Below, one piece after another: positions 10,141-57,142 of a stretch of 57,142 bases of DNA. Below the pieces are notes generated by a model. It was not told the origin of the DNA, ran no database searches, and was given only the letters and a program-made list of their open reading frames with translations. Every line of letters starts with the position of its first letter. The first letter of the stretch is position 1. The stretch covers positions 1-57,142 of the forward strand of contig JAUCBJ010002865.1 in NCBI GenBank assembly GCA_032718475.1, read 5' to 3'. A program made the translations under genes and the position numbers. The stretch comes from Nemertoderma westbladi (Eukaryota > Animalia > Xenacoelomorpha).

Positions 10141-10363
10141 AGTAGTAGGCTTACATACTGTATACAGTAGAGATCCTCCAATTATACCACACACCATTGT
10201 CCATTGCAATCTCGAGTATGGTATGATGTATAATATGTGTACTGTACGGTATAGTATAGGCCCTAATATAGTAGGTTTCTTAGTTCAGTAGTGTTTATAT
10301 TATTCTACACATGACAGTACGTTCTCGTTCGTACCCTTCTGGTGGTTTCTCATACATCATATT

Positions 10364-11764
10364 ATGGAAATGTTTGCGCAAATTGCGACCAAATTACGTT
10401 TACATAAAAGTCTTCCCCGAATTATAAACCATCGTATTTACTCATCGTCTTCCACCAGTAAACCGCCTCGAATCTGCGTTGTCGGTAGCGGACCAGCCGG
10501 GTTCTACACAACCCAATACATACTGAAGAACCACAACACCGCCATGGTCGATATATACGACCGACTACCGGTGCCGTTTGGTCTAGTCCGTTACGGGGTA
10601 GCTCCCGACCACCAGGAAGTAAAAAACGTAATGAATTCATTCGTAACGACCGCGACTAATCCGCGTTGTACGTTTATCGGGAATGTAAACATCGGGAGGG
10701 ATCTAACTGTACCGGAACTACTGACTATGTACGAAGGGGTTGTACTGACGTACGGTGCTGCGGGTGACAGACAGTTAGGCGTACCGGGGGAGGGACTCCC
10801 GGGGGTGCATTCAGCTCGACAGCTAGTTGGTTGGTACAACGGAGACCCCGAGTCGTCGAACTTCTCGCCGCAACTCGATTCCGACACAGCTGTTATTGTA
10901 GGTGTGGGTAACGTGGCTATAGATATCGCTAGGATTCTTTTATCTCCGATTAACTTACTCCAACATACAGACATACCCGATACCGTTCTAGAACGTTTGA
11001 AAACCCGGAGAATTAATAAGGTGATCTGCTTGGCGCGTCGAGGTCCGTTAGAAATTGCAGCGACGATAAAAGAATTGAGAGAAATAATAAACCTCCCTTT
11101 CTGCCGAACTGTTTTGGATAAAAATATATTTCTTCCTCTTAAAGAAGTTTTGGGATCAATTGAAAGACCTCGTAAACGATTAATTCAGTTGCTAATAGAA
11201 ACGGCTTTGGATTCGTCATCTAAAGAAAATATTAATTCCCAATTCGAGATTAAATTCTTTCGGAATCCTGTAGAGATTGTCTCTAATGATTCCGGTTCTG
11301 TTTCCGGTATAAAAGTTTATAATAGTTCGTCTTCTAACGAGGAATTTATTCCGACTAGTTTGGTTATAAAGAGTATTGGATACCGTAGCGAGCCGTTGGA
11401 GGGCGTGCCTTTCGACGAGGTGTCTGGGGTCATCCCGAACCAACTGGGGAGGGTGGGGGGTCGGATGTACTGCAGTGGGTGGGTGAAACGGGGTCCCAAG
11501 GGGGTCATACTAAACACAATGGCCGATAGTTATGAAACTGGGAAGGCCGTGGTAGAGGATTTATTGGGGGGAGTGTTGGGGGAAGGGCGGGGCGGGGCTG
11601 AGAAGGCACTAAGGGATAGGGGATTGAATCCCGTGCGCTTCACGGATTGGTCGAGAATAGATGAACACGAACAGTCGGTAGGGAAGGAGAAAGGCAAACC
11701 CAGGGAGAAATTAACTTCGGTAGATTTAATGTTGGATGTGGCGTTAAAATCTCCTGTAAAATAA
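10364..11764 (+). CDS. FDXR: Mitochondrial NADPH:adrenodoxin (ferredoxin) reductase, intronless
   Basis: 466-aa ORF with basic/Ser-rich presequence, FAD motif VVGSGPAGFY, PVPFGLVRYGVAPDHQEVKNV, NADP motif GVGNVAIDIARIL, GWVKRGPKGVI and KPREK. Confidence 0.95.
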   Translation: MEMFAQIATKLRLHKSLPRIINHRIYSSSSTSKPPRICVVGSGPAGFYTTQYILKNHNTAMVDIYDRLPVPFGLVRYGVAPDHQEVKNVMNSFVTTATNPRCTFIGNVNIGRDLTVPELLTMYEGVVLTYGAAGDRQLGVPGEGLPGVHSARQLVGWYNGDPESSNFSPQLDSDTAVIVGVGNVAIDIARILLSPINLLQHTDIPDTVLERLKTRRINKVICLARRGPLEIAATIKELREIINLPFCRTVLDKNIFLPLKEVLGSIERPRKRLIQLLIETALDSSSKENINSQFEIKFFRNPVEIVSNDSGSVSGIKVYNSSSSNEEFIPTSLVIKSIGYRSEPLEGVPFDEVSGVIPNQLGRVGGRMYCSGWVKRGPKGVILNTMADSYETGKAVVEDLLGGVLGEGRGGAEKALRDRGLNPVRFTDWSRIDEHEQSVGKEKGKPREKLTSVDLMLDVALKSPVK

Positions 11765-14138: not shown

Positions 14139-15761
14139 TTAGTGTCCTCCCATTCCCACTGGAATGTTGTTGGTGAATGCGCGAAACGCGAGTAAGTTCG
14201 AGGAGCGCAATGTTAAGGTCACGGGGTGATTCGCTTCTATATAAAATACCGAACCTTTAGAGAATTCGGAAGACATCTGATGCTCTGATGCGATCCTGTC
14301 TCGGTACATATTCCCAGACGAAGTCGCCTTACCTGGCATCGATATAGACCAATGGCCATCATCTTTGACGTCCGTGTAACTCAACGGGGCTCTGGATCGC
14401 GCTGTCATTGAGTTCGCGGGTAGAGCTGACGCCGACGTCACGAAGTCTGAAGAACTAGACGCGGATTCTTTGTGGAACGATCCAGACATTGACGACTTAC
14501 CTGGCATCGACAAGGTCCACCTGCCGTTGTTTGTACTGGACATCGAAGCGAGTCGAGGAGATGATGGTGGTGAAACAGCTCTGTGCGTCGGAGATGTCGA
14601 TCGTTTAGGAGATTCTGAGCGTCTGTCTCCCATCAATAACGACCTACTAGCGCGCTTACCAGATGGTACCGACACCGTTCCACTCCCCTGTACAACCAAT
14701 AGAATGCTAGCGCTATCCATAGCCGTTAATTTCAGCGTTTCCTTCTCGGTCCTGGCGATTTTCAATACAGCGAAATCGTTAACCGGAGGTCGATAGTAGG
14801 ATAGGCCTTTACCTTCTTGTTTAGGTACGAGTTTATGGGTTCCCGGCACGAAGTCAAGCATGCCGAGGAGAGTGTCGATGTCTTTGAGTTTGGGGGTGAG
14901 ACCGGCGCGTATAACGTTATCCGAGTTGGCCATGCATTCGATACAGTCACCGTATAGGTAGGAGTGAGGGACATTGGGGCCGAGGTAGAGAGATTCACCC
15001 GGGAGCAGTTCGGTGTGGTTGAGGAAGAACATCGCGAAACAGCCGACATCCCCGGGGAACTGCTCGTAGAGACGGAAGAACAGCCCCAACTCGGGGAAGG
15101 ACTTCGGGTTCGATGTGAATAAACTGTGAACTTCTTTCAGTTTGCTTTCTATCGTATCTTGAGTAGTTCGCATTAGTCGCGTAAAGGCCCGTTTTATGGT
15201 GGCCGCTTGACGTCGAATCGGGGCTTTACACGTGGCTTCGAGTTCGGCAACGAGAGCCGCACCGATTATGTCAGCTAGAGGATCGATTCGTCTCACAGAG
15301 TGCCATATCTCGAATACCGTCTTAAAGCCGCAGAGGGCGCCGAACTTGGTAAGGGCGATACAGAGCTCAGGTTTGTGGTTGGTGTCCTTGTAGATGTTGG
15401 GGCGAGAGCGGTGCAGTTCGATCGCTAGTTGTTTGTTCGGGTGAGCTTGTATGGACAGGCTGGAATCCACTGACAGCACCTTAAACAGGAACGGTAGATT
15501 ACTGCCGAACTTTGTTTGAACAGACATCCCGAGTCCGACGGGGTTGTACTTAATGTGGTCGCGGAGAGGAGCCACAACTCCGTTCGCGTAGACCACCATA
15601 GAGGGTCCGTTGGTATGGCAACCCATCCATAGCTCGGCGTATCGTTCGCTCGGGCTCACTTGGACTCCGGGAGCTGCTATCGGGAGTAAATGAGCCACCT
15701 CGCTGCATCGACCTTGCTTCCCCCAGTGGTACTTCTGTATCGCGCAAATTAGTTTAAACAT
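14139..15761 (-). CDS. MPI: Mannose-6-phosphate isomerase (type I PMI) with a roughly 125-140-aa Ser-rich insert near the C-terminus
   Basis: Motifs YHWGK, YAELWMGCH, LPFLFKVLSV, LSIQAHP, YKDTNHKPE, PHSYLYGDCIECMANSDNVIRAGLTPK; the C-terminal KGSVFYIEAN follows the insert. Confidence 0.95.
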   Translation of the reverse strand: MFKLICAIQKYHWGKQGRCSEVAHLLPIAAPGVQVSPSERYAELWMGCHTNGPSMVVYANGVVAPLRDHIKYNPVGLGMSVQTKFGSNLPFLFKVLSVDSSLSIQAHPNKQLAIELHRSRPNIYKDTNHKPELCIALTKFGALCGFKTVFEIWHSVRRIDPLADIIGAALVAELEATCKAPIRRQAATIKRAFTRLMRTTQDTIESKLKEVHSLFTSNPKSFPELGLFFRLYEQFPGDVGCFAMFFLNHTELLPGESLYLGPNVPHSYLYGDCIECMANSDNVIRAGLTPKLKDIDTLLGMLDFVPGTHKLVPKQEGKGLSYYRPPVNDFAVLKIARTEKETLKLTAMDSASILLVVQGSGTVSVPSGKRASRSLLMGDRRSESPKRSTSPTHRAVSPPSSPRLASMSSTNNGRWTLSMPGKSSMSGSFHKESASSSSDFVTSASALPANSMTARSRAPLSYTDVKDDGHWSISMPGKATSSGNMYRDRIASEHQMSSEFSKGSVFYIEANHPVTLTLRSSNLLAFRAFTNNIPVGMGGH

Positions 15762-16025
15762 AATGGCTGAACAAATATTAGTTTGAGTTAATTAGTTAAT
15801 TATAAACGGAATGCAGCTAATTTATTGTACAGCATTGTGAGCCGCATGCTTACTACTATTGCTTGTAATGTATACAAACAAACCGCCATTAATTATTCTA
15901 CTACCTAATTTGTTGCTTGTTGGTGAAATAAATTATTGTTCTAGAACATGATCACGATCAGTACTACTATAGTACGTTATTACAGCATATTGGCGGGATA
16001 TTTTGATATTGCTGAATTCTCGAAC

Positions 16026-20764: not shown

Positions 20765-21712
20765 CTATTTCTTAGTAAAGAAACTAGTAATGGATTTCAT
20801 TCCACTGGTATCGACTTTAGCCAACCGCTTTTGAGCGATTGTCATTTTACCGGCAGTACCTGGTTGTTTTCCTTGGTTAGACAATCCTTTACTGTAATCA
20901 TCTAGCGGACCTACAACCCCATCATCATCAACATCCTTCACTACAACAGACGCCTTAGTATCAGCTACAACTTCCACCTTCACCTCTGGGAGACACAACC
21001 GTTGCTTCAGACTGTAACTAAGACTCGGAGTTACGTACTGAGACACAAGTTCCCACGCGCAAAGTTTATAATCTTCATCCGTAACATTTTCCGCCTTAAA
21101 ATATCCATCGGCTGTCGCCCCACCTGACACATTAACCCCTTCGCTCTTCAGAGCCTCTACCACACGGGCGACCTTACCTTCCAACCACGACAAAGTTTTA
21201 TCCACGTTATATCGGAAGTATGTCTCGTTATCGACAATCCTTCGGTCACAAATTCCCTCCAATCTGTCCCGAACCCCCGGCTTATCGATAAGTTTATTTA
21301 TATGTTGGTATTTTGTGGCCACCGCCTGGTCTAATTTCATAAATACATTGGAGCAATGTTGGTCTAAGTAGGGAAGTAATAGGAATAGTTCGTCGATTGG
21401 TGTTCCGACGTAGTAGTTGCCGTTGCGGACAACAGAATCGCCAATGAACCACGAGCTCGGGGAGGTGTCAACTTCCAGGAGCTCGATGGTCGAATCGACA
21501 TCGAGGAGGAATAAACGCGGGTTGTTTGTAGCCGGGCAAGGGAGTTGGGTAGGGGTGAGGTGTACTGGAGGGTGGGGGACAGTGGGAGAGTCTGGTGGGG
21601 AGTCAGAGGTGTTGAGAGGCGCACCTGTACGAGGGTTCGCCTTATAAGCGAAGCCATAAGTACCGGTACCGGTAGTTAAGGAAGGAAGGATTAGAACTCG
21701 GCTGGGCGACAT
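20765..21712 (-). CDS. RNASEH2B: Ribonuclease H2 subunit B, intronless
   Basis: 315-aa ORF with SSWFIGDSVVRNG, TPIDELFLLLPYL, YFRYNVDKTLSWL and a C-terminal PCNA PIP box (LAKVDTSGMKSITSFF) characteristic of RNase H2B. Confidence 0.9.
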   Translation of the reverse strand: MSPSRVLILPSLTTGTGTYGFAYKANPRTGAPLNTSDSPPDSPTVPHPPVHLTPTQLPCPATNNPRLFLLDVDSTIELLEVDTSPSSWFIGDSVVRNGNYYVGTPIDELFLLLPYLDQHCSNVFMKLDQAVATKYQHINKLIDKPGVRDRLEGICDRRIVDNETYFRYNVDKTLSWLEGKVARVVEALKSEGVNVSGGATADGYFKAENVTDEDYKLCAWELVSQYVTPSLSYSLKQRLCLPEVKVEVVADTKASVVVKDVDDDGVVGPLDDYSKGLSNQGKQPGTAGKMTIAQKRLAKVDTSGMKSITSFFTKK

Positions 21713-22198
21713 TATTTAGGCCTATATCTGTATATATCAGTACAGCAGTAGGCCTAGGCCTATCCTATTCCTATAGGCTGATAGGCCTATGTACCGTACC
21801 TACTTGTATGGTATCGGCAGAACGGCTGAACGGTACTAGGACAGTTACACGTCAGTCAGTCAGTACAGTATGCAGTAGGTCTAGTCCTGTTCCTGTATGG
21901 AATCCATCGAAAAAGTGCGCCGGATAGGCAGGCCTAGCTGCCTAGCGCGCCGATCAATTTTTATGCGCGCCACGCGCCGATGCAATTACGAAGTAAACCG
22001 CGTGCCAATAAAATTTTTAAGCGCGCCGCGCGTTGACACAATTTTGAAGCGCGCCGCGCCAATGTAATTTAAATTTTGAAGGAGTGTAACCAAACAGCAA
22101 AACAAGCCTGCCAGCTGCTGCACTGCCAGTACAGCAGTATTTCTGTACTCTGGTACCGGTAGGCCTACTGCAGTACTGCAGTAAGTTGAAAGAATTTT

Positions 22199-23153: not shown

Positions 23154-23776
23154 CCCTGGGATCATGGATCCGGAAGTCAAGTGAGGACCTTCGAATACGT
23201 AAGGGAAAGGCATGGGCAGCCTTGAATAGGCTTTCCAGGATTTGGAAGTCACCGAAAATTAATCGGAAACTTAAGGTACGATTATTTAGAGCAGCAGTAG
23301 TTCCAGTACTCCTCTATGGGAGTCCATGCTGGGCTCTAACTGCTGCGGACACCAAATCTTTGGATGGCACATTCACAAGAATGCTACGCCGGGTTCATTG
23401 TGTCACGTACAATGCACACATCTCCAACCAGACACTATATAACATTGGAGGTATCTCATTGGTTCCCCCAAGCTTGACACTAGACCAAAGCCGCCCTCGC
23501 TTTGCATGACATTGCTTTCGCCGTGAGGACCAGCCAGTGCATAATCTTGTGCTTTGGCGGCCTCATGGAGTGAATAAGCATGGTGGACACCCCATGACTT
23601 TCTTGAGACGCATCTTAATGGACACTGTTCTTGAAGATGCGGATGATCTAGCAAATATCATGGGTGATAGGGAGTTGTGGCGGTGCAATTTTGTCAACAA
23701 GCCGGCACAGCATTCTTAATATATATGTAATATATATTTATAATGCAGCTGCAATGCAGCATGCCGATCCTTGTAG
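23154..23776 (+). mobile_element. 5'-truncated RTE-like LINE (copy 3)
   Basis: Same sequence as the 3' part of copy 2; 14-bp TSD TATTTGCTACAAAT at 23140-23153 and 23777-23790. Confidence 0.92.
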
Positions 23777-37959: not shown

Positions 37960-38059
37960 ATGAAAATGTATATAAATCTCATAGTTACTGCAATAATAGT
38001 GATGAATTCAGTAAGAGTTATTATTACTGACAATGGAACAGAAATAGTACCTGATCCTA
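37960..38059 (+). CDS. Predicted first coding exon (signal peptide) of the Cys-loop receptor subunit gene
   Basis: ATG..MKMYINLIVTAIIVMNSVRVIITDNGTEIVPDP plus 1 nt, then GTAAGT at 38060. Phase 1 joins in frame to the exon at 45605; the N-terminus is hydrophobic. Confidence 0.6.
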
Positions 38060-38621
38060 GTAAGTACCCTTTAATAATGTGATTTCTTTTGCTTTTTTTG
38101 GTAGAACTATTGTTATTGGTTGATTTAAGTTTAAATTAGTTAAATGAAATATTTGTGCTATTAATTTTGCTCGCGGCTTAACCGAGAGCATCTTACATAA
38201 ATACTTAAATGGAGTATTTAATTGGCCTTTAATTTGGATTAAGTTAGTTTATTGACCCCCCTACCTCTACTATTGGTTATTTTGAGTGAAAACGTGCTAA
38301 TTACTAATTTTGTGACATAATACCTTAATCAATAAACATATATCTCTATTATTTACGTATATAAACAAGTAATCTAATAATCAGTCAACAAACAATATTA
38401 TTGAAAAGGAAAGATAAATCAGTCGTGTTACTGTAATATCGCCATTCCATGCCATGGTACTTTCAATGGTTGTGTATCACAAACTGTTAATAGATAACAT
38501 ACAATGATACAGTGAACAGATTGCACCAATTGAATTATTACCTAATCTGAGTTCTCACATCCATTCTATTATGGATAGTAATATTTATTGACGGTTGTCA
38601 CCGGTTATTACCTGCTATTGT

Positions 38622-39895
38622 ATTAACAGTTATCCAATTTGTGCAGTCTATCCAACCACCAGTTATCCTATTTTTGCACAGGCTATCCAACAGTTATCCT
38701 ATTTTTGCACAGGCTATCCGTCAGTTATCCTATTTTTGCACAGCTATCCAACAGTTATCCAATTTTTGCACAGGCTATCCAACAGTTATCCTATTTTTGC
38801 ACAGGCTATCCGACAGTTATCCTATTTTTGCACAGCTATCCAACAGTTATCCAATTTTTGCACAGGCTATCCAACAGTTATCCAATTTTTGCACAGGCTA
38901 TCCAACAGTTATCCAATTTTGCACAGGCTATCCAACAGTTATCCAATTTTTGCACAGGCTATCCAACAGTTATCCAATTTTTGCACAGGCTATCCAACAG
39001 TTATCCAATTTTGCACAGGCTATCCACCAGTTATCCTATTTTTGCACAGGCTATCCAACAGTTATCCTATTTTTGCACAGGCTATCCGTCAGTTATCCTA
39101 TTTTTGCACAGCTATCCAACAGTTATCCAATTTTTGCACAGGCTATCCAACAGTTATCCTATTTTTGCACAGCTATCCAACAGTTATCCAATTTTTGCAC
39201 AGGCTATCCAACAGTTATCCAATTTTTGCACAGGCTATCCAACAGTTATCCAATTTTTGCACAGGCTATCCAACAGTTATCCAATTTTTGCACAGGCTAT
39301 CCAACAGTTATCCAATTTTTGCACAGGCTATCCAACAGTTATCCAATTTTTGCACAGGCTATACAACAGTTATCCAATTTTTGCACAGGCTATCCAACAG
39401 TTATCCTATTTTTGCACAGGCTATCCAACAGTTATCCAATTTTTGCACAGGCTATCCAACAGTTATCCAATTTTTGCACAGGCTATCCAACAGTTATCCT
39501 ATTTTGCACAGGCTATCCAACAGTTATCCAATTTTTGCACAGGCAATCCAACAGTTATCCTATTTTTGCACAGGCTATCCAACAGTTACCCTATTTTTGC
39601 ACAGGCTATCCAACAGTTATCCTATTTTTGCACAGGCTATCCAACAGTTATCCTATTTTTGCACAGGCTATCCAACAGTTATCCAATTTTTGCACAGGCT
39701 ATCCGACAGTTATCCAATTTTTGCACAGGCAATCCAACAGTTATCCTATTTTTGCACAGGCTATCCAACAGTTATCCAATTTTTGCACAGGCTATCCAAC
39801 AGTTATCCAATTTTGCACAGCTAACAGTTATCCTATTTTTGCACAGGCTATCCAACAGTTATCCTATTTTTGCACAGGCTACAGTTATCCAATTT
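38622..39895 (+). repeat. 31-bp tandem array, about 41 copies (GCACAGGCTATCCAACAGTTATCCAATTTTT)
   Basis: Period 31 (39181 to 39212). Confidence 0.96.
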
Positions 39896-40282
39896 CAAGG
39901 CTGTCTGGGATTATATTTTTACATTTAATAAGGGCAGCAGGCCTCCTTGGAATAAATTTATAGTTGTACCGGTACCACATACTGATATCTGGATTCAGGA
40001 TATTATGCATCCTTTGTTATAGTATTGTCTTTAAGGGCTGACCGATTATACCGGAGGCCTAGTAATAGTATTTTATTGACATTTAAATGGTACAGGAAAC
40101 AAGTCACTTAAATTCAAAAACAACACAGAAATACACCAAATAATAATATGTCCAGCTGACCAATCGATAATAATCTACTGTATCTCGATATACATACAGT
40201 AAATCAGTACAAAAAATATAATATAATATACATGATATACATATACATACATACATACATACATACATATACATATACATAA

Positions 40283-41302
40283 TTGACGGTGACACAGAAC
40301 CATTTGAAGTGTTATGGGGCGTCCTCCAAGGAGACACACTTGCACCATTCTTGTTCATTATTGTGGTTGACTATGTTCTACGCATGTCCTTAGATCATCA
40401 TAATGATGATGGGGTGATGATAACTCCACCTACTGGCTCCAGAAGTCGAGGAAATCCTGCCAAGTACCTAACTGATCTAGACTTTGCTGATGACTTAGGA
40501 GTACTCTCAGAATCATTAGAGGGAGCCCAGCGGCTCCTCAGCTCATTAGAACATGCTGCTTCTAGTGTTGGTCTTTTTATTAACTCCAGAAAGACCAAAA
40601 TTCTGACAGTTAACTTTGAAAGTCCTCAGCAAGTCTCTGATCGGATGAGCATAAGCTCAAAGGATGGTATGCTTGAGCATATGGACGACTTCTGTTACCT
40701 GGGATCATGGATCCGGAAGTCAGGTGAGGACCTTCGAATACGTAAGGGAAAGGCATGGGCAGCCTTGAATAGGCTTTCCAGGATTTGGAAGTCACCTAGA
40801 ATTAATCGGAAACTTAAGGTCCGATTATTTAGAGCAGCAGTAGTTCCAGTACTCCTCTACGGGAGTCCATGCTGGGCTCTAACTGCTGAGGACACCAAAT
40901 CTCTGGATGGCACATTCACAAGAATGCTACGCCGGGTACATTGTGTCAAGTACAATGCACACATCTCCAACCAGACACTATATACTGTAACATTGGAGGT
41001 GTCTCATTGGTTCCCCCAAGCTTGACACTAGAACAAAATCGCCTCCGCTTTGCAGGACATTGCTTTCGCCGTGAGGACCAGCCAGTGCATAATCTTGTAC
41101 TTTGGCAGCGTCATGGAGTGAATAAGCATGGTGGACAGCCCATGACTTTCTTGAGACGCATCTTAAAGGACACTGGCCTTAAAGATGCGGATGATCTAGC
41201 AAATGTCATGGGTGATAGGGAGTTGTGGCGGTGCAATTTTGTTGACAAGCCGGCACAGCATTCCTAAAAATGCAGCTGCAATGCAGCATGCCGATCCTAG
41301 TA
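40283..41302 (+). mobile_element. 5'-truncated RTE-like LINE (copy 4) flanked by a 262-bp direct duplication
   Basis: Same family as copy 2; 39972-40233 appears identical to 41303-41564; TACA-type microsatellite at the 5' junction. Confidence 0.93.
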
Positions 41303-42181
41303 GTACCACATACTGATATCTGGATTCAGGATATTATGCATCCTTTGTTATAGTATTGTCTTTAAGGGCTGACCGATTATACCGGAGGCCTAGTAATAGT
41401 ATTTTATTGACATTTAAATGGTACAGGAAACAAGTCACTTAAATTCAAAAACAACACAGAAATACACCAAATAATAATATGTCCAGCTGACCAATCGATA
41501 ATAATCTACTGTATCTCGATATACATACAGTAAATCAGTACAAAAAATATAATATAATATACATAATAACAATAGCACAAACAAAGACAAAAAATATGTA
41601 ACAAGCAAATTTACTTACAAATCAGATCTAAACTAATATTTAGGCGAAAGGGAGGGGGGGGGGGGGGTGGTTAAGTCAACTTAACCAAGGGTTAAGGTTC
41701 GTAGGTAATTACGACTCTATACTCACATACGTAGGTAATTAAGAGTCCGCTCACATACACTGCAAGCCTACCCGAGTGTGTTTGTAGGTCGTTAAACAAA
41801 CGCGAGATACATGAAAAATTATAAGACCCGGAAAGTCAAGTCTATTTTGTTTCCGATTAGGCTTGTAATTATAATTTTGAATTCCGAATTGTAAGTTGTT
41901 AGCCTACCTGCGCCTGTGGCTGTGTTGAGCATGCTGCATGTGTTTAGTCAGTTCTACTAGTTCATCCTAAACTTAACCAATTAGGACTGTTACAGCTCCT
42001 CGTCAGGTGTGCGGTAGGCCTACCGGTATAATCGGTCACCCCAAAGAGACAATATTATAACAAAGGCTGCCTATCCTGATATCAGTACTTGGTACCGGTA
42101 CAACTATAATATTATTTCAAGGACATCTCCTGCCCTTTAATAAATCTAAAAATGAAGTCCAATACAGTTAAATAGATTTTC

Positions 42182-42584
42182 GATAACTGTATCCTGTGCA
42201 AAAATAGGGTAACTGTTGGATAGCCTGTGCAAAAATAGGGTAACTGTTGGATAGCCTGTGCAAAAATAGGGTAACTGTTGGATAGCCTGTGCAAAAATTT
42301 GATAACTGTTGGATAGCCTGTGCAAAAATTGGATAACTGTTGGATAGCCTGTGCAAAAATTGGATAACTGTTGGATAGCTGTGCAAAAATAGGATAACTG
42401 TCGGATAGCCTGTGCAAAAATAGGATAACTGTTGGATAGCCTGTGCAAAAATAGGATAACTGTTGGATAGCCTGTGCAAAAATTGGATAACTGTTGGATA
42501 GCTGTGCAAAAATAGGGTAACTGTTGGATAGCCTGTGCAAAAATAGAGTAACTGTTGGATAGCCTGTGCAAAAATTGGATAGCT
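42182..42584 (-). repeat. Inverted copy of the 31-bp array, about 13 copies
   Basis: GATAACTGTTGGATAGCCTGTGCAAAAA is the reverse complement of the 38622-39895 unit. Confidence 0.95.
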
Positions 42585-43085
42585 CTTAATAGCTGGTAAT
42601 AACCCGCCCAACATGTGAAGATTACCAGGATTTCACTTCTCGGTCGACGTTTTATTGGAATTTTTTATATGAAGATTTTTTCTTTTTTTGAATTTATCTT
42701 TATTAAGTGTTTTATAGCGCTTATTTCTATGCATCGATGGCTTAGAACGAGTTGGGGTTCCTTTGTATGGGACAGCATAAATTATTATTTTGTCATTTCT
42801 TGCAGTGCAATACGCATCTTGGAGAATGAGATAAATTAGTAGGAAGCAAGTATATATCCCTGAATATCAGATGTTATCATTACAAGTGAAGCTAATTCAT
42901 TCATCTTGTGAATGATTCCATTATTTAATAATAAACCTAAATCTTTTGAGTTTTTAGAATAAATTACTTTTTTAAAGGCAGAGTATAGCAGCTTTACGTA
43001 ACAGTTATTATTGTCTCTGATATATAATCGTAACTACACTGTTACTGTTCCGTCGAAATTAAATTTGTTCCACAACGTAATCTTA

Positions 43086-45565
43086 TAAGTCCAATATTAC
43101 ACTATACTGTATAAAGTTATGCCCAGTACAGTAAGTCCAAGATTATACTATACTGTATAAAGTTATGCCCAGTACAGTAAGTTCAAGATTACACTATACT
43201 GTATAAAGTTATGCCCAGTACAGTAAGTCCAAGATTACACTATACTGTATAAAGTTATACCCAGTAATGTTAGTCCAAGATTACACTATACTGTATAACG
43301 TTATGCCCAGTACAGTAAGTCCAAGATTATACTATACTGTATAAAGTTATGCCCAGTACAGTAAGTCCAAGATTACACTATACTGTATAAAGATATGCCC
43401 AGTACAGTAAGTCCAAGATTACACTATACTGTATAAAGTTATGCCCAGTACAGTAAGTCCAAGATTACACTATACTGTATAAAGTTATGCCCAGTACAGT
43501 AAGTCCAAGATTACACTATAGTGTATAAAGTTATGCCCAGTACTGTTAGTCCAAGATTACACTATACTGTATAAAGATATGCCCAGTACAGTAAGTTCAA
43601 TATTACACTATACTGTATAAAGTTATGCCCAGTACAGTAAGTCCAAGATTACACTATACTGTATAAAGTTATGCCCAGTACAGTAAGTCCAAGATTACAC
43701 TATACTGTATAAAGTTATGCCCAGTACAGTAAGTCCAAGATTACACTATACTGTATAAAGTTATGCCAAGTACAGTAAGTCCAAGGTTACACTATACTGT
43801 ATAAAGTTATGCCCAGTACAGTAAGTCCAACATTACACTATACTGTATAAAGTTATGCCCAGTACAGTAAGTCCAAGATTACACTATAGTGTATAAAGTT
43901 ATGCCCAGTACTGTTAGTCCAAGATTACACTATACTGTATAAAGTTATGCCCAGGACAGTAAGTCCAAGGTTACACTATACTGTATAAAGTTATGCCCAG
44001 TACAGTAAGTTCAAGATTACACTATACTGTATAAAGTTATGCCCAGTACAGTAAGTCCAAGATTACACTATACTGTATAAAGTTATACCCAGTAATGTTA
44101 GTCCAAGATTACACTATACTGTATAACGTTATGCCCAGTACAGTAAGTCCAAGATTATACTATACTGTATAAAGTTATGCCCAGTACAGTAAGTCCAAGA
44201 TTACACTATACTGTATAAAGATATGCCCAGTACAGTAAGTCCAAGATTACACTATACTGTATAAAGTTATGCCCAGTACAGTAAGTCCAAGATTACACTA
44301 TACTGTATAAAGTTATGCCCAGTACAGTAAGTCCAAGATTACACTATAGTGTATAAAGTTATGCCCAGTACTGTTAGTCCAAGATTACACTATACTGTAT
44401 AAAGATATGCCCAGTACAGTAAGTTCAATATTACACTATACTGTATAAAGTTATGCCCAGTACAGTAAGTCCAAGATTACACTATACTGTATAAAGTTAT
44501 GCCCAGTACAGTAAGTCCAAGATTACACTATACTGTATAAAGTTATGCCCAGTACAGTAAGTCCAAGATTACACTATACTGTATAAAGTTATGCCAAGTA
44601 CAGTAAGTCCAAGGTTACACTATACTGTATAAAGTTATGCCCAGTACAGTAAGTCCAACATTACACTATACTGTATAAAGTTATGCCCAGTACAGTAAGT
44701 CCAAGATTACACTATAGTGTATAAAGTTATGCCCAGTACTGTTAGTCCAAGATTACACTATACTGTATAAAGTTATGCCCAGGACAGTAAGTCCAAGGTT
44801 ACACTATACTGTATAAAGTTATGCTCAGTACAGTAAGTCCAACATTACACTATACTGTATAAAGTTATGCCCAGTACAGTAAGTCCAAGATTACACTATA
44901 GTGTATAAAGTTATGCCCAGTACTGTTAGTCCAAGATTACACTATACTGTATAAAGTTATGCCCAGTACAGTAAGTCCAAGGTTACACTATACTGTATAA
45001 AGTTATGCCCAGTACAGTAAGTCCAACATTACACTATACTGTATAAAGTTATGCCCAGTACAGTAAGTCCAACATTACACTATACTGTATAAAGTTATGC
45101 CCAGTACAGTAAGTCCAAGATTACACTATAGTGTATAAAGTTATGCCCAGTACTGTTAGTCCAAGATTACACTATACTGTATAAAGTTATGCCAAGTACA
45201 GTAAGTCCAAGATTACACTATACTGTATAAAGATATGCCCAGTACAGTAAGTCCAAGATTACACTATACTGTATAAAGTTATGCCCAGTACAGTAAGTCC
45301 AAGATTACACTACACTGTATAAAGTTATGCCCAGTACAGTAAGTCCAAGATTACACTATACTGTATAAAGTTATGCCCAGTACAGTAAGTCCAAGATTAC
45401 ACTATACTGTATAAAGTTATGCCCAGTACAGTAAGTCAAAGATTACACTATACTGTATAAAGTTATGCCCAGTACAGTAAGTCCAAGATTACACTATACT
45501 GTATAAAGTTATGCCCAGTACAGTAAGTCCAAGATTACACTATACTGTATAAAGTTATGCCCAGT
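43086..45565. repeat. 46-bp tandem array, about 54 copies (GTAAGTCCAAGATTACACTATACTGTATAAAGTTATGCCCAGTACA)
   Basis: Direct periodicity; an 18-unit (828-bp) block is duplicated; the array ends 39 bp before the exon. Confidence 0.97.
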
Positions 45566-45604
45566 CTTACAATCTAGCCCTGCCTTGATTATTATGTTTA
45601 ATAG

Positions 45605-45738
45605 ATAAAGATTTGGGTCGTCTCTACGAGAAATTGTTTCAGGGCGGGAGATACAATCCCAGAATCAGACCGGTAGTTGACCAGAACAATCCCGTCAATG
45701 TTGTCATTGACATGTCTCTGAGGATGGTACTAGATGTT
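45605..45738 (+). CDS. Coding exon 2 of a Cys-loop ligand-gated ion channel subunit (nicotinic acetylcholine receptor-like); rest of gene beyond the window
   Basis: tttaatAG|AT KDLGRLYEKLFQGGRYNPRIRPVVDQNNPVNVVIDMSLRMVLDV|GTAAGT matches the pattern RL...L...YN..IRPV......V.V...L....DV, with the phase-0 intron after DV seen in nAChR genes. Confidence 0.85.
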
Positions 45739-48700
45739 GTAAGTGATTGTATATGACTTACGGATGGTACTAGATGTTGTAAGTGATTGTATATGACTTA
45801 CGGATGGTACTAGATGTTGTAAGTGATTGTATATGACTTACGGATGGTACTAGATGTTGTAAGTGATTGTATATGACTTACGGATGGTACTAGATGTTGT
45901 AAGTGATTGTATATGACTTACGGATGGTACTAGATGTTGTAAGTGATTGTATATGACTTACGGATGGTACTAGATGTTGTAAGTGATTGTATATGACTTA
46001 CGGATGGTACTAGATGTTGTAAGTGATTGTATATGACTTACGGATGGTACTAGATGTTGTAAGTGATTGTATATGACTTACGGATGGTACTAGATGTTGT
46101 AAGTGATTGTATATGACTTACGGATGGTACTAGATGTTGTAAGTGATTGTATATGACTTACGGATGGTACTAGATGTTGTAAGTGATTGTATATGACTTA
46201 CGGATGGTACTAGATGTTGTAAGTGATTGTATATGACTTACGGATGGTACTAGATGTTGTAAGTGATTGTATATGACTTACGGATGGTACTAGATGTTGT
46301 AAGTGATTGTATGACATACGGATGGTACTAGATGTTGTAAGTGATTGTATATGACTTACGGATGGTACTAGATGTTGTAAGTGATTGTATATGACTTACG
46401 GATGGTACTAGATGTTGTAAGTGATTGTATATGACTTACGGATGGTACTAGATGTTGTAAGTGATTGTATATGACTTACGGATGGTACTAGATGTTGTAA
46501 GTGATTGTATGACTTACGGATGGTACTAGATGTTGTAAGTGATTGTATGACTTACGGATGGTACTAGATGTTGTAAGTGATTGTATATGACTTACGGATG
46601 GTACTTGATGTTGTAAGTGATTGTATATGACTTACGGATGGTACTTGATGTTGTAAGTGATTGTATATGACTTACGGATGGTACTAGATGTTGTAAGTGA
46701 TTGTATGACTTACGGATGGTACTAGATGTTGTAAGTGATTGTATATGACTTACGGATGGTACTTGATGTTGTAAGTGATTGTATATGACTTACGGATGGT
46801 ACTAGATGTTGTAAGTGATTGTATGACTTACGGATGGTACTAGATGTTGTAAGTGATTGTATATGACTTACGGATGGTACTAGATGTTGTAAGTGATTGT
46901 ATAACTTACGGATGGTACTAGATGTTGTAAGTGATTGTATGACTTACGGATGGTACTAGATGTTGTAAGTGATTGTATATGACTTACGGATGGTACTAGA
47001 TGTTGTAAGTGATTGTATATGACTTACGGATGGTACTAGATGTTGTAAGTGATTGTATAACTTACGGATGGTACTAGATGTTGTAAGTGATTGTATATGA
47101 CTTACGGATGGTACTAGATGTTGTAAGTGATTGTATATGACTTACGGATGGTACTAGATGTTGTAAGTGATTGTATATGACTTACGGATGGTACTAGATG
47201 TTGTAAGTGATTGTATAACTTACGGATGGTACTAGATGTTGTAAGTGATTGTATATGACTTACGGATGGTACTAGATGTTGTAAGTGATTGTATGACTTA
47301 CGGATGGTACTAGATGTTGTAAGTGATTGTATATGACTTACGGATGGTACTAGATGTTGTAAGTGATTGTATATGACTTACGGATGGTACTAGATGTTGT
47401 AAGTGATTGTATATGACTTACGGATGGTACTAGATGTTGTAAGTGATTGTATATGACTTACGGATGGTACTAGATGTTGTAAGTGATTGTATGACTTACG
47501 GATGGTACTAGATGTTGTAAGTGATTGTATGACTTACGGATGGTACTAGATGTTGTAAGTGATTGTATATGACTTACGGATGGTACTTGATGTTGTAAGT
47601 GATTGTATATGACTTACGGATGGTACTTGATGTTGTAAGTGATTGTATATGACTTACGGATGGTACTAGATGTTGTAAGTGATTGTATGACTTACGGATG
47701 GTACTAGATGTTGTAAGTGATTGTATATGACTTACGGATGGTACTTGATGTTGTAAGTGATTGTATATGACTTACGGATGGTACTAGATGTTGTAAGTGA
47801 TTGTATGACTTACGGATGGTACTAGATGTTGTAAGTGATTGTATATGACTTACGGATGGTACTAGATGTTGTAAGTGATTGTATATGACTTACGGATGGT
47901 ACTAGATGTTGTAAGTGATTGTATATGACTTACGGATGGTACTAGATGTTGTAAGTGATTGTATAACTTACGGATGGTACTAGATGTTGTAAGTGATTGT
48001 ATATGACTTACGGATGGTACTAGATGTTGTAAGTGATTGTATATGACTTACGGATGGTACTAGATGTTGTAAGTGATTGTATATGACTTACGGATGGTAC
48101 TAGATGTTGTAAGTGATTGTATAACTTACGGATGGTACTAGATGTTGTAAGTGATTGTATATGACTTACGGATGGTACTAGATGTTGTAAGTGATTGTAT
48201 ATGACTTACGGATGGTACTAGATGTTGTAAGTGATTGTATAACTTACGGATGGTACTAGATGTTGTAAGTGATTGTATATGACTTACGGATGGTACTAGA
48301 TGTTGTAAGTGATTGTATATGACTTACGGATGGTACTAGATGTTGTAAGTGATTGTATGACTTACGGATGGTACTAGATGTTGTAAGTGATTGTATGACT
48401 TACGGATGGTACTAGATGTTGTAAGTGATTGTATATGACTTACGGATGGTACTAGATGTTGTAAGTGATTGTATGACTTACGGATGGTACTAGATGTTGT
48501 AAGTGATTGTATATGACTTACGGATGGTACTAGATGTTGTAAGTGATTGTATGACTTACGGATGGTACTAGATGTTGTAAGTGATTGTATGACTTACGGA
48601 TGGTACTAGATGTTGTAAGTGATTGTATGACTTACGGATGGTACTAGATGTTGTAAGTGATTGTATGACTTACGGATGGTACTAGATGTTGTAAGTGATT

Positions 48701-51700
48701 GTATGACTTACGGATGGTACTAGATGTTGTAAGTGATTGTATGACTTACGGATGGTACTAGATGTTGTAAGTGATTGTATGACTTACGGATGGTACTAGA
48801 TGTTGTAAGTGATTGTATGACTTACGGATGGTACTAGATGTTGTAAGTGATTGTATGACTTACGGATGGTACTAGATGTTGTAAGTGATTGTATGACTTA
48901 CGGATGGTACTAGATGTTGTAAGTGATTGTATGACTTACGGATGGTACTAGATGTTGTAAGTGATTGTATGACTTACGGATGGTACTAGATGTTGTAAGT
49001 GATTGTATGACTTACGGATGGTACTAGATGTTGTAAGTGATTGTATGACTTACGGATGGTACTAGATGTTGTAAGTGATTGTATGACTTACGGATGGTAC
49101 TAGATGTTGTAAGTGATTGTATATGACTTACGGATGGTACTAGATGTTGTAAGTGATTGTATATGACTTACGGATGGTACTAGATGTTGTAAGTGATTGT
49201 ATGACTTACGGATGGTACTAGATGTTGTAAGTGATTGTATGACTTACGGATGGTACTAGATGTTGTAAGTGATTGTATATGACTTACGGATGGTACTAGA
49301 TGTTGTAAGTGATTGTATGACTTACGGATGGTACTAGATGTTGTAAGTGATTGTATGACTTACGGATGGTACTAGATGTTGTAAGTGATTGTATGACTTA
49401 CGGATGGTACTAGATGTTGTAAGTGATTGTATGACTTACGGATGGTACTAGATGTTGTAAGTGATTGTATGACTTACGGATGGTACTAGATGTTGTAAGT
49501 GATTGTATGACTTACGGATGGTACTAGATGTTGTAAGTGATTGTATGACTTACGGATGGTACTAGATGTTGTAAGTGATTGTATGACTTACGGATGGTAC
49601 TAGATGTTGTAAGTGATTGTATGACTTACGGATGGTACTAGATGTTGTAAGTGATTGTATGACTTACGGATGGTACTAGATGTTGTAAGTGATTGTATGA
49701 CTTACGGATGGTACTAGATGTTGTAAGTGATTGTATGACTTACGGATGGTACTAGATGTTGTAAGTGATTGTATATGACTTACGGATGGTACTAGATGTT
49801 GTAAGTGATTGTATGACTTACGGATGGTACTAGATGTTGTAAGTGATTGTATATGACTTACGGATGGTACTAGATGTTGTAAGTGATTGTATATGACTTA
49901 CGGATGGTACTAGATGTTGTAAGTGATTGTATGACTTACGGATGGTACTAGATGTTGTAAGTGATTGTATATGACTTACGGATGGTACTAGATGTTGTAA
50001 GTGATTGTATGACTTACGGATGGTACTAGATGTTGTAAGTGATTGTATGACTTACGGATGGTACTAGATGTTGTAAGTGATTGTATGACTTACGGATGGT
50101 ACTAGATGTTGTAAGTGATTGTATGACTTACGGATGGTACTAGATGTTGTAAGTGATTGTATATGACTTACGGATGGTACTAGATGTTGTAAGTGATTGT
50201 ATGACTTACGGATGGTACTAGATGTTGTAAGTGATTGTATGACTTACGGATGGTACTAGATGTTGTAAGTGATTGTATGACTTACGGATGGTACTAGATG
50301 TTGTAAGTGATTGTATGACTTACGGATGGTACTAGATGTTGTAAGTGATTGTATGACTTACGGATGGTACTAGATGTTGTAAGTGATTGTATGACTTACG
50401 GATGGTACTAGATGTTGTAAGTGATTGTATGACTTACGGATGGTACTAGATGTTGTAAGTGATTGTATGACTTACGGATGGTACTAGATGTTGTAAGTGA
50501 TTGTATGACTTACGGATGGTACTAGATGTTGTAAGTGATTGTATATGACTTACGGATGGTACTAGATGTTGTAAGTGATTGTATGACTTACGGATGGTAC
50601 TAGATGTTGTAAGTGATTGTATATGACTTACGGATGGTACTAGATGTTGTAAGTGATTGTATGACTTACGGATGGTACTAGATGTTGTAAGTGATTGTAT
50701 GACTTACGGATGGTACTAGATGTTGTAAGTGATTGTATATGACTTACGGATGGTACTAGATGTTGTAAGTGATTGTATGACTTACGGATGGTACTAGATG
50801 TTGTAAGTGATTGTATATGACTTACGGATGGTACTAGATGTTGTAAGTGATTGTATGACTTACGGATGGTACTAGATGTTGTAAGTGATTGTATGACTTA
50901 CGGATGGTACTAGATGTTGTAAGTGATTGTATATGACTTACGGATGGTACTAGATGTTGTAAGTGATTGTATGACTTACGGATGGTACTAGATGTTGTAA
51001 GTGATTGTATGACTTACGGATGGTACTAGATGTTGTAAGTGATTGTATGACTTACGGATGGTACTAGATGTTGTAAGTGATTGTATGACTTACGGATGGT
51101 ACTAGATGTTGTAAGTGATTGTATGACTTACGGATGGTACTAGATGTTGTAAGTGATTGTATGACTTACGGATGGTACTAGATGTTGTAAGTGATTGTAT
51201 GACTTACGGATGGTACTAGATGTTGTAAGTGATTGTATGACTTACGGATGGTACTAGATGTTGTAAGTGATTGTATATGACTTACGGATGGTACTAGATG
51301 TTGTAAGTGATTGTATGACTTACGGATGGTACTAGATGTTGTAAGTGATTGTATGACTTACGGATGGTACTAGATGTTGTAAGTGATTGTATGACTTACG
51401 GATGGTACTAGATGTTGTAAGTGATTGTATGACTTACGGATGGTACTAGATGTTGTAAGTGATTGTATGACTTACGGATGGTACTAGATGTTGTAAGTGA
51501 TTGTATGACTTACGGATGGTACTAGATGTTGTAAGTGATTGTATGACTTACGGATGGTACTAGATGTTGTAAGTGATTGTATGACTTACGGATGGTACTA
51601 GATGTTGTAAGTGATTGTATGACTTACGGATGGTACTAGATGTTGTAAGTGATTGTATGACTTACGGATGGTACTAGATGTTGTAAGTGATTGTATGACT

Positions 51701-54700
51701 TACGGATGGTACTAGATGTTGTAAGTGATTGTATATGACTTACGGATGGTACTAGATGTTGTAAGTGATTGTATGACTTACGGATGGTACTAGATGTTGT
51801 AAGTGATTGTATGACTTACGGATGGTACTAGATGTTGTAAGTGATTGTATGACTTACGGATGGTACTAGATGTTGTAAGTGATTGTATGACTTACGGATG
51901 GTACTAGATGTTGTAAGTGATTGTATATGACTTACGGATGGTACTAGATGTTGTAAGTGATTGTATGACTTACGGATGGTACTAGATGTTGTAAGTGATT
52001 GTATGACTTACGGATGGTACTAGATGTTGTAAGTGATTGTATGACTTACGGATGGTACTAGATGTTGTAAGTGATTGTATGACTTACGGATGGTACTAGA
52101 TGTTGTAAGTGATTGTATGACTTACGGATGGTACTAGATGTTGTAAGTGATTGTATGACTTACGGATGGTACTAGATGTTGTAAGTGATTGTATGACTTA
52201 CGGATGGTACTAGATGTTGTAAGTGATTGTATGACTTACGGATGGTACTAGATGTTGTAAGTGATTGTATGACTTACGGATGGTACTAGATGTTGTAAGT
52301 GATTGTATGACTTACGGATGGTACTAGATGTTGTAAGTGATTGTATGACTTACGGATGGTACTAGATGTTGTAAGTGATTGTATGACTTACGGATGGTAC
52401 TAGATGTTGTAAGTGATTGTATGACTTACGGATGGTACTAGATGTTGTAAGTGATTGTATGACTTACGGATGGTACTAGATGTTGTAAGTGATTGTATGA
52501 CTTACGGATGGTACTAGATGTTGTAAGTGATTGTATGACTTACGGATGGTACTAGATGTTGTAAGTGATTGTATGACTTACGGATGGTACTAGATGTTGT
52601 AAGTGATTGTATGACTTACGGATGGTACTAGATGTTGTAAGTGATTGTATGACTTACGGATGGTACTAGATGTTGTAAGTGATTGTATGACTTACGGATG
52701 GTACTAGATGTTGTAAGTGATTGTATGACTTACGGATGGTACTAGATGTTGTAAGTGATTGTATGACTTACGGATGGTACTAGATGTTGTAAGTGATTGT
52801 ATGACTTACGGATGGTACTAGATGTTGTAAGTGATTGTATGACTTACGGATGGTACTAGATGTTGTAAGTGATTGTATGACTTACGGATGGTACTAGATG
52901 TTGTAAGTGATTGTATGACTTACGGATGGTACTAGATGTTGTAAGTGATTGTATGACTTACGGATGGTACTAGATGTTGTAAGTGATTGTATGACTTACG
53001 GATGGTACTAGATGTTGTAAGTGATTGTATGACTTACGGATGGTACTAGATGTTGTAAGTGATTGTATGACTTACGGATGGTACTAGATGTTGTAAGTGA
53101 TTGTATGACTTACGGATGGTACTAGATGTTGTAAGTGATTGTATGACTTACGGATGGTACTAGATGTTGTAAGTGATTGTATGACTTACGGATGGTACTA
53201 GATGTTGTAAGTGATTGTATGACTTACGGATGGTACTAGATGTTGTAAGTGATTGTATGACTTACGGATGGTACTAGATGTTGTAAGTGATTGTATGACT
53301 TACGGATGGTACTAGATGTTGTAAGTGATTGTATGACTTACGGATGGTACTAGATGTTGTAAGTGATTGTATGACTTACGGATGGTACTAGATGTTGTAA
53401 GTGATTGTATGACTTACGGATGGTACTAGATGTTGTAAGTGATTGTATGACTTACGGATGGTACTAGATGTTGTAAGTGATTGTATGACTTACGGATGGT
53501 ACTAGATGTTGTAAGTGATTGTATGACTTACGGATGGTACTAGATGTTGTAAGTGATTGTATGACTTACGGATGGTACTAGATGTTGTAAGTGATTGTAT
53601 GACTTACGGATGGTACTAGATGTTGTAAGTGATTGTATGACTTACGGATGGTACTAGATGTTGTAAGTGATTGTATGACTTACGGATGGTACTAGATGTT
53701 GTAAGTGATTGTATGACTTACGGATGGTACTAGATGTTGTAAGTGATTGTATGACTTACGGATGGTACTAGATGTTGTAAGTGATTGTATGACTTACGGA
53801 TGGTACTAGATGTTGTAAGTGATTGTATGACTTACGGATGGTACTAGATGTTGTAAGTGATTGTATGACTTACGGATGGTACTAGATGTTGTAAGTGATT
53901 GTATGACTTACGGATGGTACTAGATGTTGTAAGTGATTGTATGACTTACGGATGGTACTAGATGTTGTAAGTGATTGTATGACTTACGGATGGTACTAGA
54001 TGTTGTAAGTGATTGTATGACTTACGGATGGTACTAGATGTTGTAAGTGATTGTATGACTTACGGATGGTACTAGATGTTGTAAGTGATTGTATGACTTA
54101 CGGATGGTACTAGATGTTGTAAGTGATTGTATGACTTACGGATGGTACTAGATGTTGTAAGTGATTGTATGACTTACGGATGGTACTAGATGTTGTAAGT
54201 GATTGTATGACTTACGGATGGTACTAGATGTTGTAAGTGATTGTATGACTTACGGATGGTACTAGATGTTGTAAGTGATTGTATGACTTACGGATGGTAC
54301 TAGATGTTGTAAGTGATTGTATGACTTACGGATGGTACTAGATGTTGTAAGTGATTGTATGACTTACGGATGGTACTAGATGTTGTAAGTGATTGTATGA
54401 CTTACGGATGGTACTAGATGTTGTAAGTGATTGTATGACTTACGGATGGTACTAGATGTTGTAAGTGATTGTATGACTTACGGATGGTACTAGATGTTGT
54501 AAGTGATTGTATATGACTTACGGATGGTACTAGATGTTGTAAGTGATTGTATGACTTACGGATGGTACTAGATGTTGTAAGTGATTGTATGACTTACGGA
54601 TGGTACTAGATGTTGTAAGTGATTGTATGACTTACGGATGGTACTAGATGTTGTAAGTGATTGTATGACTTACGGATGGTACTAGATGTTGTAAGTGATT

Positions 54701-57142
54701 GTATGACTTACGGATGGTACTAGATGTTGTAAGTGATTGTATGACTTACGGATGGTACTAGATGTTGTAAGTGATTGTATGACTTACGGATGGTACTAGA
54801 TGTTGTAAGTGATTGTATGACTTACGGATGGTACTAGATGTTGTAAGTGATTGTATGACTTACGGATGGTACTAGATGTTGTAAGTGATTGTATGACTTA
54901 CGGATGGTACTAGATGTTGTAAGTGATTGTATGACTTACGGATGGTACTAGATGTTGTAAGTGATTGTATGACTTACGGATGGTACTAGATGTTGTAAGT
55001 GATTGTATGACTTACGGATGGTACTAGATGTTGTAAGTGATTGTATGACTTACGGATGGTACTAGATGTTGTAAGTGATTGTATGACTTACGGATGGTAC
55101 TAGATGTTGTAAGTGATTGTATGACTTACGGATGGTACTAGATGTTGTAAGTGATTGTATGACTTACGGATGGTACTAGATGTTGTAAGTGATTGTATGA
55201 CTTACGGATGGTACTAGATGTTGTAAGTGATTGTATGACTTACGGATGGTACTAGATGTTGTAAGTGATTGTATGACTTACGGATGGTACTAGATGTTGT
55301 AAGTGATTGTATGACTTACGGATGGTACTAGATGTTGTAAGTGATTGTATGACTTACGGATGGTACTAGATGTTGTAAGTGATTGTATATGACTTACGGA
55401 TGGTACTAGATGTTGTAAGTGATTGTATGACTTACGGATGGTACTAGATGTTGTAAGTGATTGTATGACTTACGGATGGTACTAGATGTTGTAAGTGATT
55501 GTATGACTTACGGATGGTACTAGATGTTGTAAGTGATTGTATGACTTACGGATGGTACTAGATGTTGTAAGTGATTGTATGACTTACGGATGGTACTAGA
55601 TGTTGTAAGTGATTGTATGACTTACGGATGGTACTAGATGTTGTAAGTGATTGTATGACTTACGGATGGTACTAGATGTTGTAAGTGATTGTATGACTTA
55701 CGGATGGTACTAGATGTTGTAAGTGATTGTATGACTTACGGATGGTACTAGATGTTGTAAGTGATTGTATGACTTACGGATGGTACTAGATGTTGTAAGT
55801 GATTGTATGACTTACGGATGGTACTAGATGTTGTAAGTGATTGTATATGACTTACGGATGGTACTAGATGTTGTAAGTGATTGTATGACTTACGGATGGT
55901 ACTAGATGTTGTAAGTGATTGTATGACTTACGGATGGTACTAGATGTTGTAAGTGATTGTATGACTTACGGATGGTACTAGATGTTGTAAGTGATTGTAT
56001 GACTTACGGATGGTACTAGATGTTGTAAGTGATTGTATGACTTACGGATGGTACTAGATGTTGTAAGTGATTGTATGACTTACGGATGGTACTAGATGTT
56101 GTAAGTGATTGTATGACTTACGGATGGTACTAGATGTTGTAAGTGATTGTATGACTTACGGATGGTACTAGATGTTGTAAGTGATTGTATGACTTACGGA
56201 TGGTACTAGATGTTGTAAGTGATTGTATGACTTACGGATGGTACTAGATGTTGTAAGTGATTGTATGACTTACGGATGGTACTAGATGTTGTAAGTGATT
56301 GTATGACTTACGGATGGTACTAGATGTTGTAAGTGATTGTATGACTTACGGATGGTACTAGATGTTGTAAGTGATTGTATATGACTTACGGATGGTACTA
56401 GATGTTGTAAGTGATTGTATGACTTACGGATGGTACTAGATGTTGTAAGTGATTGTATGACTTACGGATGGTACTAGATGTTGTAAGTGATTGTATGACT
56501 TACGGATGGTACTAGATGTTGTAAGTGATTGTATGACTTACGGATGGTACTAGATGTTGTAAGTGATTGTATGACTTACGGATGGTACTAGATGTTGTAA
56601 GTGATTGTATGACTTACGGATGGTACTAGATGTTGTAAGTGATTGTATATGACTTACGGATGGTACTAGATGTTGTAAGTGATTGTATGACTTACGGATG
56701 GTACTAGATGTTGTAAGTGATTGTATGACTTACGGATGGTACTAGATGTTGTAAGTGATTGTATGACTTACGGATGGTACTAGATGTTGTAAGTGATTGT
56801 ATGACTTACGGATGGTACTAGATGTTGTAAGTGATTGTATATGACTTACGGATGGTACTAGATGTTGTAAGTGATTGTATGACTTACGGATGGTACTAGA
56901 TGTTGTAAGTGATTGTATGACTTACGGATGGTACTAGATGTTGTAAGTGATTGTATGACTTACGGATGGTACTAGATGTTGTAAGTGATTGTATGACTTA
57001 CGGATGGTACTAGATGTTGTAAGTGATTGTATGACTTACGGATGGTACTAGATGTTGTAAGTGATTGTATGACTTACGGATGGTACTAGATGTTGTAAGT
57101 GATTGTATGACTTACGGATGGTACTAGATGTTGTAAGTGATT
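45722..57142 (+). repeat. 40/38-bp tandem array, about 295 copies, running off the window; unit is the exon-2 end plus splice donor (GGATGGTACTAGATGTT|GTAAGTGATTGT(AT)ATGACTTAC)
   Basis: The first unit overlaps the last 17 nt of the exon; 40-mers lie near the exon and 38-mers dominate distally. Confidence 0.97.

Follow-up and report, generated by a model that had tools for sequence, protein, structure and literature searches.

Tandem repeats that copy an exon-intron boundary are known from human and lancelet genes. For the 37-bp variable number tandem repeat (VNTR) in intron 7 of F7, 50 constructs in three cell lines showed that splicing uses the intact donor located farthest upstream and no other. 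The downstream donors are all functional when tested, with distant ones losing to exon skipping (PMC1557585). The same report names CBS intron 13, the interferon-inducible 6-16 gene, LMNB2 and PDGF as similar cases and cites that two extra proximal donors are used in 6-16 and CBS but none in LMNB2 and PDGF (PMC1557585). The VNTR of ABCA7 intron 18 is composed of 25-bp units starting at the donor GT and ranges from 12 to about 427 units, i.e., up to 10,678 bp (PMC5954066; PMC13747324). Retention of one unit gives an isoform with a premature stop, which is a target of nonsense-mediated decay (NMD) and independent of the array length; skipping of exon 19 varies with that length (PMC5954066). In amphioxus, the 'mirage' minisatellites of Adh3, BflGb6 and BflGb9 are boundary copies that show concerted evolution and leave splicing undisturbed (PMC3087553). 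Here, we study a junction-spanning minisatellite with at least 297 donors that starts in exon 2 of a nicotinic-type Cys-loop receptor gene of Nemertoderma westbladi (Xenacoelomorpha; assembly GCA_032718475.1, contig JAUCBJ010002865.1, positions 1 to 57,142 of the forward strand, called the window in the following). It is a large example of the repeat type introduced above, with a scale that is not unprecedented. Our analysis suggests that the array is probably selectively neutral, with the spliceosome using the first of its donors and a minor leak to decay.

The array covers 45722..57142 (+ strand). Tandem Repeats Finder reports a period of 38, 296.7 copies and 98% matches. A first-pass annotation, made from the letters of the window, had described the repeat unit as the last 17 nt of a coding exon plus the first 21-23 nt of its intron and had counted about 295 identical GTT|GTAAGT donors over more than 11 kb. 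Splitting the array into 296 complete units confirms this make-up (final 17 exon nt followed by either 21 or 23 intron nt), and 297 identical donors were counted. The latter is a minimum; the array meets the window end, and the 3' part of intron 2 lies beyond. The 17 exon nt code for conserved residues, so the unit presumably arose from the junction instead of being inserted into it, and its make-up supports the origin proposed in the annotation.

Reading past donor 1 yields VSDCI followed by a stop, i.e., an in-frame TGA at 45754..45756 (+ strand) within the first unit, as had been noted before. This stop is part of the mRNA whenever a later donor is used. Since every later donor takes in the first unit, a protein is possible from donor 1 only, and the earlier view that all later donors are unproductive holds. 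The longest open stretch within the array on the + strand comprises 22 codons. Micro-exons of 5 nt inside the units were considered as well and judged unlikely, as the respective AG lacks a pyrimidine tract. An exact 30-nt scan of metagenome contigs and an Rfam scan of the window each gave 0 matches.

The complete units fall into five types, namely A (38 bp, 216 units), B (40 bp, 67), C (40 bp, 6), D (38 bp, 6) and E (38 bp, a single unit). Units 1-14 are all of type B, and the share of this type decreases from 32/50 in units 1-50 to 1/50 in units 201-250. The 40-bp units dominate near the exon and the 38-bp units farther away. Among units 201-250, 49/50 are identical. Furthermore, the variant pattern of units 16-29 equals that of units 41-54, which marks an internal block duplication at 46320..47853 (+ strand; coordinates from summed unit lengths). 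Its pattern length of 14 units was reached in 0/1000 shuffles of the first 66 units. These observations fit growth of the array with block duplication as well as internal turnover and homogenisation.

Exon 2 is located at 45605..45738 (+ strand; 134 nt, entered in phase 1 and left in phase 0). Its identity as an exon of a nicotinic-type Cys-loop receptor and its boundaries are set by homology. The reading frame 45604-45738 encodes a 45-residue peptide, which a Pfam profile search aligns to positions 3-40 of PF02931 (E 1.7e-5, 24.8 bits) in agreement with the Cys-loop identity proposed in the first-pass annotation. This score is below the whole-protein cut-off of 26 bits because the peptide is only a fragment. 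In the PDB, 20/20 matches are nicotinic subunits, all of them weak (E 0.16-0.84), and the top matches correspond to alpha7 residues 28-65 (E 0.16-0.2). The exon retains the conserved YNP-RP motif, its frame is open, and its splice sites are canonical with correct phases.

In human CHRNA7, exon 1 has 55 coding nt and exon 2 has 140 nt and thus ends at codon 65 (PMC4486519). The last residue of our exon 2 is a valine that aligns to this final residue of CHRNA7 exon 2. Donor 1 (GTAAGT, 45739..45744, + strand) is thus placed, by the alpha7 alignment and the CHRNA7 exon sizes, at a conserved intron position, i.e., after the beta-1 valine in phase 0, where the annotation had listed an intron of nicotinic acetylcholine receptor genes as established. 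At the other end of the exon, there is an in-frame stop at 45586-45588, 18 nt upstream, and because of it no acceptor other than the AG at 45603-45604 preserves the conserved N-terminal helix. An exonic AG is absent both before donor 1 and before the donor of candidate exon 1 (see below), and donors of this kind may be normal in the host organism. The certain receptor sequence amounts to the 45 residues, which belong to the N-terminal ligand-binding domain; the Cys-loop, the loop C cysteines and the four transmembrane helices would fall past the window end.

Given this anatomy, the neutral reading can be phrased as a sequence of steps. A 40-bp stretch across the exon 2/intron 2 junction would have been duplicated once and then expanded by slippage or unequal exchange, as would the other arrays of the window. 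The expansion would be tolerated, as it leaves exon 2 and the first donor intact. As in F7, donor 1 would prevail, being the first to be transcribed and located 134 nt away from the acceptor of the exon. Where donor 2 or 3 is occasionally used, the mRNA would contain the stop and be degraded by NMD, as in ABCA7, CBS and 6-16. A hairpin predicted for each unit, which is detailed below, would not select the donor but would be either a passenger or a scar that the first duplication left behind.

The repeat content of the window is relevant for the first of these steps. Ten arrays make up 31,174/57,142 bp (55%), and nine independent seeds of about 38 bp are found in 25,721 bp of unique DNA. From this seed density, the chance that a given splice junction lies inside a seed is about 1.3% by our arithmetic. 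With arrays being this widespread, a chance origin of the junction array is to be expected, and the whole genome should show many such cases. Within this window, an origin from junctions is not the rule, since of 63 open frames flanking the remaining nine arrays, 61 are unmatched in Pfam, one is exon 2 itself and one shows a retroelement domain. Leaving exon 2 aside, 0/62 of these frames match a host-gene family.

Beside the donor, each unit offers a second conspicuous hexamer. The donor hexamer has an exact reverse complement, ACTTAC, which is found at 45756..45761 (+ strand) in the first unit and is present in 295 units, 9-11 nt 3' of the donor hexamer. ACUUAC is the sequence of the U1 5' end. 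This anti-donor, which was spotted post hoc, is predicted to form a hairpin over the donor. Among 200,000 shuffled units, 0.17-0.19% contain an exact anti-donor, and none of the 17 GTAAGT sites in unique DNA of the window is followed by one within 34 nt. Predicted folds of two units (z -3.3) and of three units (z -3.5) are each matched by 1/200 shuffles, while neither the single-unit window (z -1.7) nor the exon-end window (z -1.2) differs significantly from shuffles. The predicted hairpin energy is -6.5 to -7.6 kcal/mol compared to -5.6 kcal/mol computed for a short duplex with the 5' end of U1. Both common length variants of the array are located in the predicted hairpin loop.

With regard to masking, shuffles hide the donor equally well or better in 61/300 cases for the 38-bp unit and in 124/300 cases for the 40-bp unit. 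Stem-loops that regulate splicing by covering a donor have a precedent in the MAPT exon 10 type. The anti-donor studied here is rare by sequence, yet the predicted donor accessibility is within the shuffled range, i.e., the functional control is negative for masking. Donor 1 itself has a predicted unpaired probability of 0.003-0.06. We rejected the idea that the hairpin favours donor 1, given that nascent-RNA folding at +10 nt shows donor 1 to be less open than donor 2 (0.21 vs. 0.62), with both near 0 from +23. Since the predicted hairpin covers every donor alike, including donor 1, it cannot select one of them; the first duplication may have left it as a fold-back scar, or it may be a passenger. 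A general origin of the window's arrays from hairpins was rejected as well, as only 2/8 distinct arrays show p<0.05 in the folding-energy shuffle. A 6-bp stem is present in 22% of 634 unique 40-mers.

A stronger role can be modelled, in which the array is a self-silencing donor satellite. That is, the mimic of the U1 5' end would fold over its own donor after at most about 23 nt of transcription, donor 1, with help from the acceptor of the exon, would be the only one captured in time, the masking would permit growth to hundreds of units, and the array length would tune the amount of receptor subunit. We give this model little credence.

Upstream of exon 2, a scan for signal-peptide exons revealed a sole phase-1 candidate on the + strand. 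The coding part of this candidate exon 1 (37960..38059, + strand) provides an ATG, a hydrophobic signal-peptide-like stretch and a phase-1 GTAAGT donor, and its junction with exon 2 is in frame and stop-free (78 aa). Shuffling the 25.7 kb of unique DNA yields 0.3 candidates per shuffle. The candidate, which lies about 7.5 kb upstream of exon 2, may be the signal-peptide exon, with modest support given that 25% of 200 shuffles provide a candidate. Inside candidate exon 1, we also observe a donor-like phase-0 site at 38011 that is in phase with an acceptor-like AG within exon 2 (45641-45642; site 45643). A hypothetical splice from 38011 to 45643 would remove the first helix of the ligand-binding domain.

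Based on this exon 1 assignment, intron 1 would span 38060..45604 (+ strand; 7545 bp) and contain an inverted pair of 31-bp arrays along with a reverse-transcriptase fragment and a 46-bp array. The 46-bp array (43086..45565, + strand) has about 54 copies, in which 45 GTAAGT hexamers are found. It stops 39 nt short of the acceptor of exon 2, such that exon 2 is sandwiched between arrays of donor-like hexamers, i.e., the 46-bp array on its 5' side and the junction array on its 3' side. The hexamers of the 46-bp array are predicted to be paired, which is within the range of shuffles (86/300 hide the hexamer equally well or better). The array was tested as a copy of the exon 1 junction and rejected, since the resemblance is limited to GTAAGT. 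The 31-bp satellite occurs in opposite orientations at 38625-39881 and 42193-42581, with 313-nt arms that are 94% complementary. Both copies bracket a 4-kb block in the manner of a foldback-type element, and within this block the reverse-transcriptase fragment is located between direct repeats of about 250-290 bp (near 39970 and 41305, identified by eye).

Three further genes of the window are single open frames, namely a gene with weak Pfam matches that we take to be ferredoxin-reductase-like (10343-11764, + strand), the mannose-6-phosphate isomerase gene (MPI; 14139-15773, - strand) and the gene of RNase H2 subunit B (20765-21715, - strand). In contrast to these single-frame housekeeping genes, the receptor gene retains ancestral introns packed with repeats. 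The single frames had suggested an acoelomorph, but the 3-6 exons per gene given in PMC10565955 do not decide this. By the proteins compared, the databases contain no close relative, with best identities of 48% for MPI among the 120 matches listed and 36% for RNase H2 subunit B, which has 1 match among 2432 candidates. Branchiostoma MPI is 46% identical, i.e., the organism is not close to amphioxus. The MPI frame comprises 544 aa, about 120-140 more than most relatives, and shows a perfect CAG|GTAAGT near codon 425 (window position 14500, - strand), such that the extension may be either intron read-through or a real tail. Finally, four fragments of one non-LTR (non-long terminal repeat) retroelement family are located at about 7250-7740, 9040-10140, 23155-23770 and 40290-41300, with RVT_1 and DUF6451 in the copies scanned.

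Several points weigh against the neutral reading. The use of the first donor is borrowed from mammals and lancelets, and the F7-type tests spanned 5-25 donors (PMC1557585), in contrast to the about 300 of the array, which share 17 identical nt of exon context. A large array need not be neutral, given that the array length of ABCA7 alters the splicing of the next exon (PMC5954066). The exact anti-donor is rare both among shuffled units and at the GTAAGT sites of unique DNA, and the exons following exon 2 are located beyond the window end. The same length effect in ABCA7 and the same rarity would suit an array that sets the dose of the receptor. Here, array length, decoy donors or donor-covering hairpins would divert a large share of the transcripts to later donors and thereby to decay, to skipping of exon 2 (134 nt, i.e., a frameshift) or to skipping of exon 3. 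Tuning of expression by decoy U1 binding or NMD had been raised as a possibility in the first-pass annotation as well. While the ABCA7 length effect concerns the next exon, the use of the second donor in that gene is independent of length (PMC5954066). The anti-donor is kept in 295 units and its predicted hairpin is about as stable as the U1 duplex, but the donor is hidden no better than in shuffles, which holds for both unit lengths and also for the 46-bp unit. Similarly, the two common length variants are confined to the hairpin loop, but about 4 variant events are too few to show selection. The second array with donor-like hexamers just 5' of exon 2 would fit dose setting as well, but arrays are found everywhere in the window. 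Taken together, we consider dose setting quite unlikely.

Another explanation is a dead or dying gene, with an array that grew after the loss of function or caused it. This would be in line with donor 1 being predicted as paired and without an exonic AG, but such an AG is also absent at the candidate exon 1 donor and thus its lack may be normal for the organism. Repeats crowd the inferred intron 1, but candidate exon 1 joins exon 2 in frame, and exon 2 itself is open with its motif and its canonical, correctly phased splice sites kept. Searching for longer proteins with the exon peptide, 0/11 candidates scored, and the inspected profile matches among 1.84 billion representatives included no full-length protein, both of which are weak blanks. 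Loss of function is thus unlikely in our view. Finally, the array could be real but of inflated length due to assembly or consensus errors. Long runs of identical units, e.g., in units 201-250, would fit this case, and the most common variant changes 2 nt within a TA run, which is a typical site of sequencing errors. On the other hand, rare variants recur in the same order in the 14-unit block, and unit types shift gradually along the array. Both fit real turnover and argue against a purely artefactual array, such that we regard a substantially inflated length as improbable. The neutral reading with first-donor use therefore remains our preferred one.

The locus provides a natural test close to the extreme, in which about 300 donors share the same exon and intron context and the animal is distant from mammals. 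It bears on the question whether the priority of the first donor, demonstrated with 5-25 donors for F7-type genes, extends to about 300. Should the anti-donor prove necessary, it would account for the ability of some donor repeats, but not of others, to expand; without such a role, the array is a large but ordinary example of a known repeat type. The first-pass annotation had raised the choice of one donor among hundreds of identical competitors. As a new problem this is not supported, since F7 is a precedent with only its most upstream intact donor being used (PMC1557585), and hundreds of ABCA7 units over 10 kb have already been described (PMC5954066).

Comparing the locus with known systems, the gene resembles CHRNA7-type genes in having a candidate signal-peptide exon that ends in phase 1, followed by an exon of about 140 nt ending in phase 0 at the same valine; the difference is that 45 residues, known from one exon, are certain here. 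The amphioxus mirages are similar as tandem copies of a donor or acceptor boundary in an invertebrate, but the globin cases have 3-6 units compared to at least 297 here (PMC3087553). A lancelet counterpart may exist for the receptor gene itself. Our profile search with the exon peptide among the 1.84 billion representatives gave 4 matches, the best of which is the CHRNB2 model CAH1252497.1 of Branchiostoma lanceolatum; the other two of the three inspected are unrelated repeat proteins. CAH1252497.1, a predicted protein, contains the start of the same receptor exon in four tandem copies and looks like a mis-predicted read-through of four intron 1/exon 2 boundary copies, i.e., an acceptor-side mirage. 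It differs from the donor-side array of the window in this respect and is known from the predicted protein alone.

F7 shares the first unit that spans the exon-intron boundary, the identical intronic donors and a similar unit length (37 bp vs. 38/40 bp). It has 5-26 copies compared to at least 297 here and 4 exon nt per unit compared to 17, and its authors sought a masking secondary structure and found none (PMC1557585), whereas each unit here carries an exact anti-donor. ABCA7 shares the tandem units starting at a donor directly after an exon and the hundreds of units over about 10.7 kb. Its 25-bp units begin at the GT and show many sequence variants (PMC5954066), in contrast to 17 exon nt, an identical donor context and 5 types among 296 units here. 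Our search of the open-access literature gave no report of a donor repeat whose units contain an anti-donor. What is new relative to the known repeats is thus the anti-donor in each unit, along with the combination of about 300 copies, a fully identical donor context and this anti-donor.

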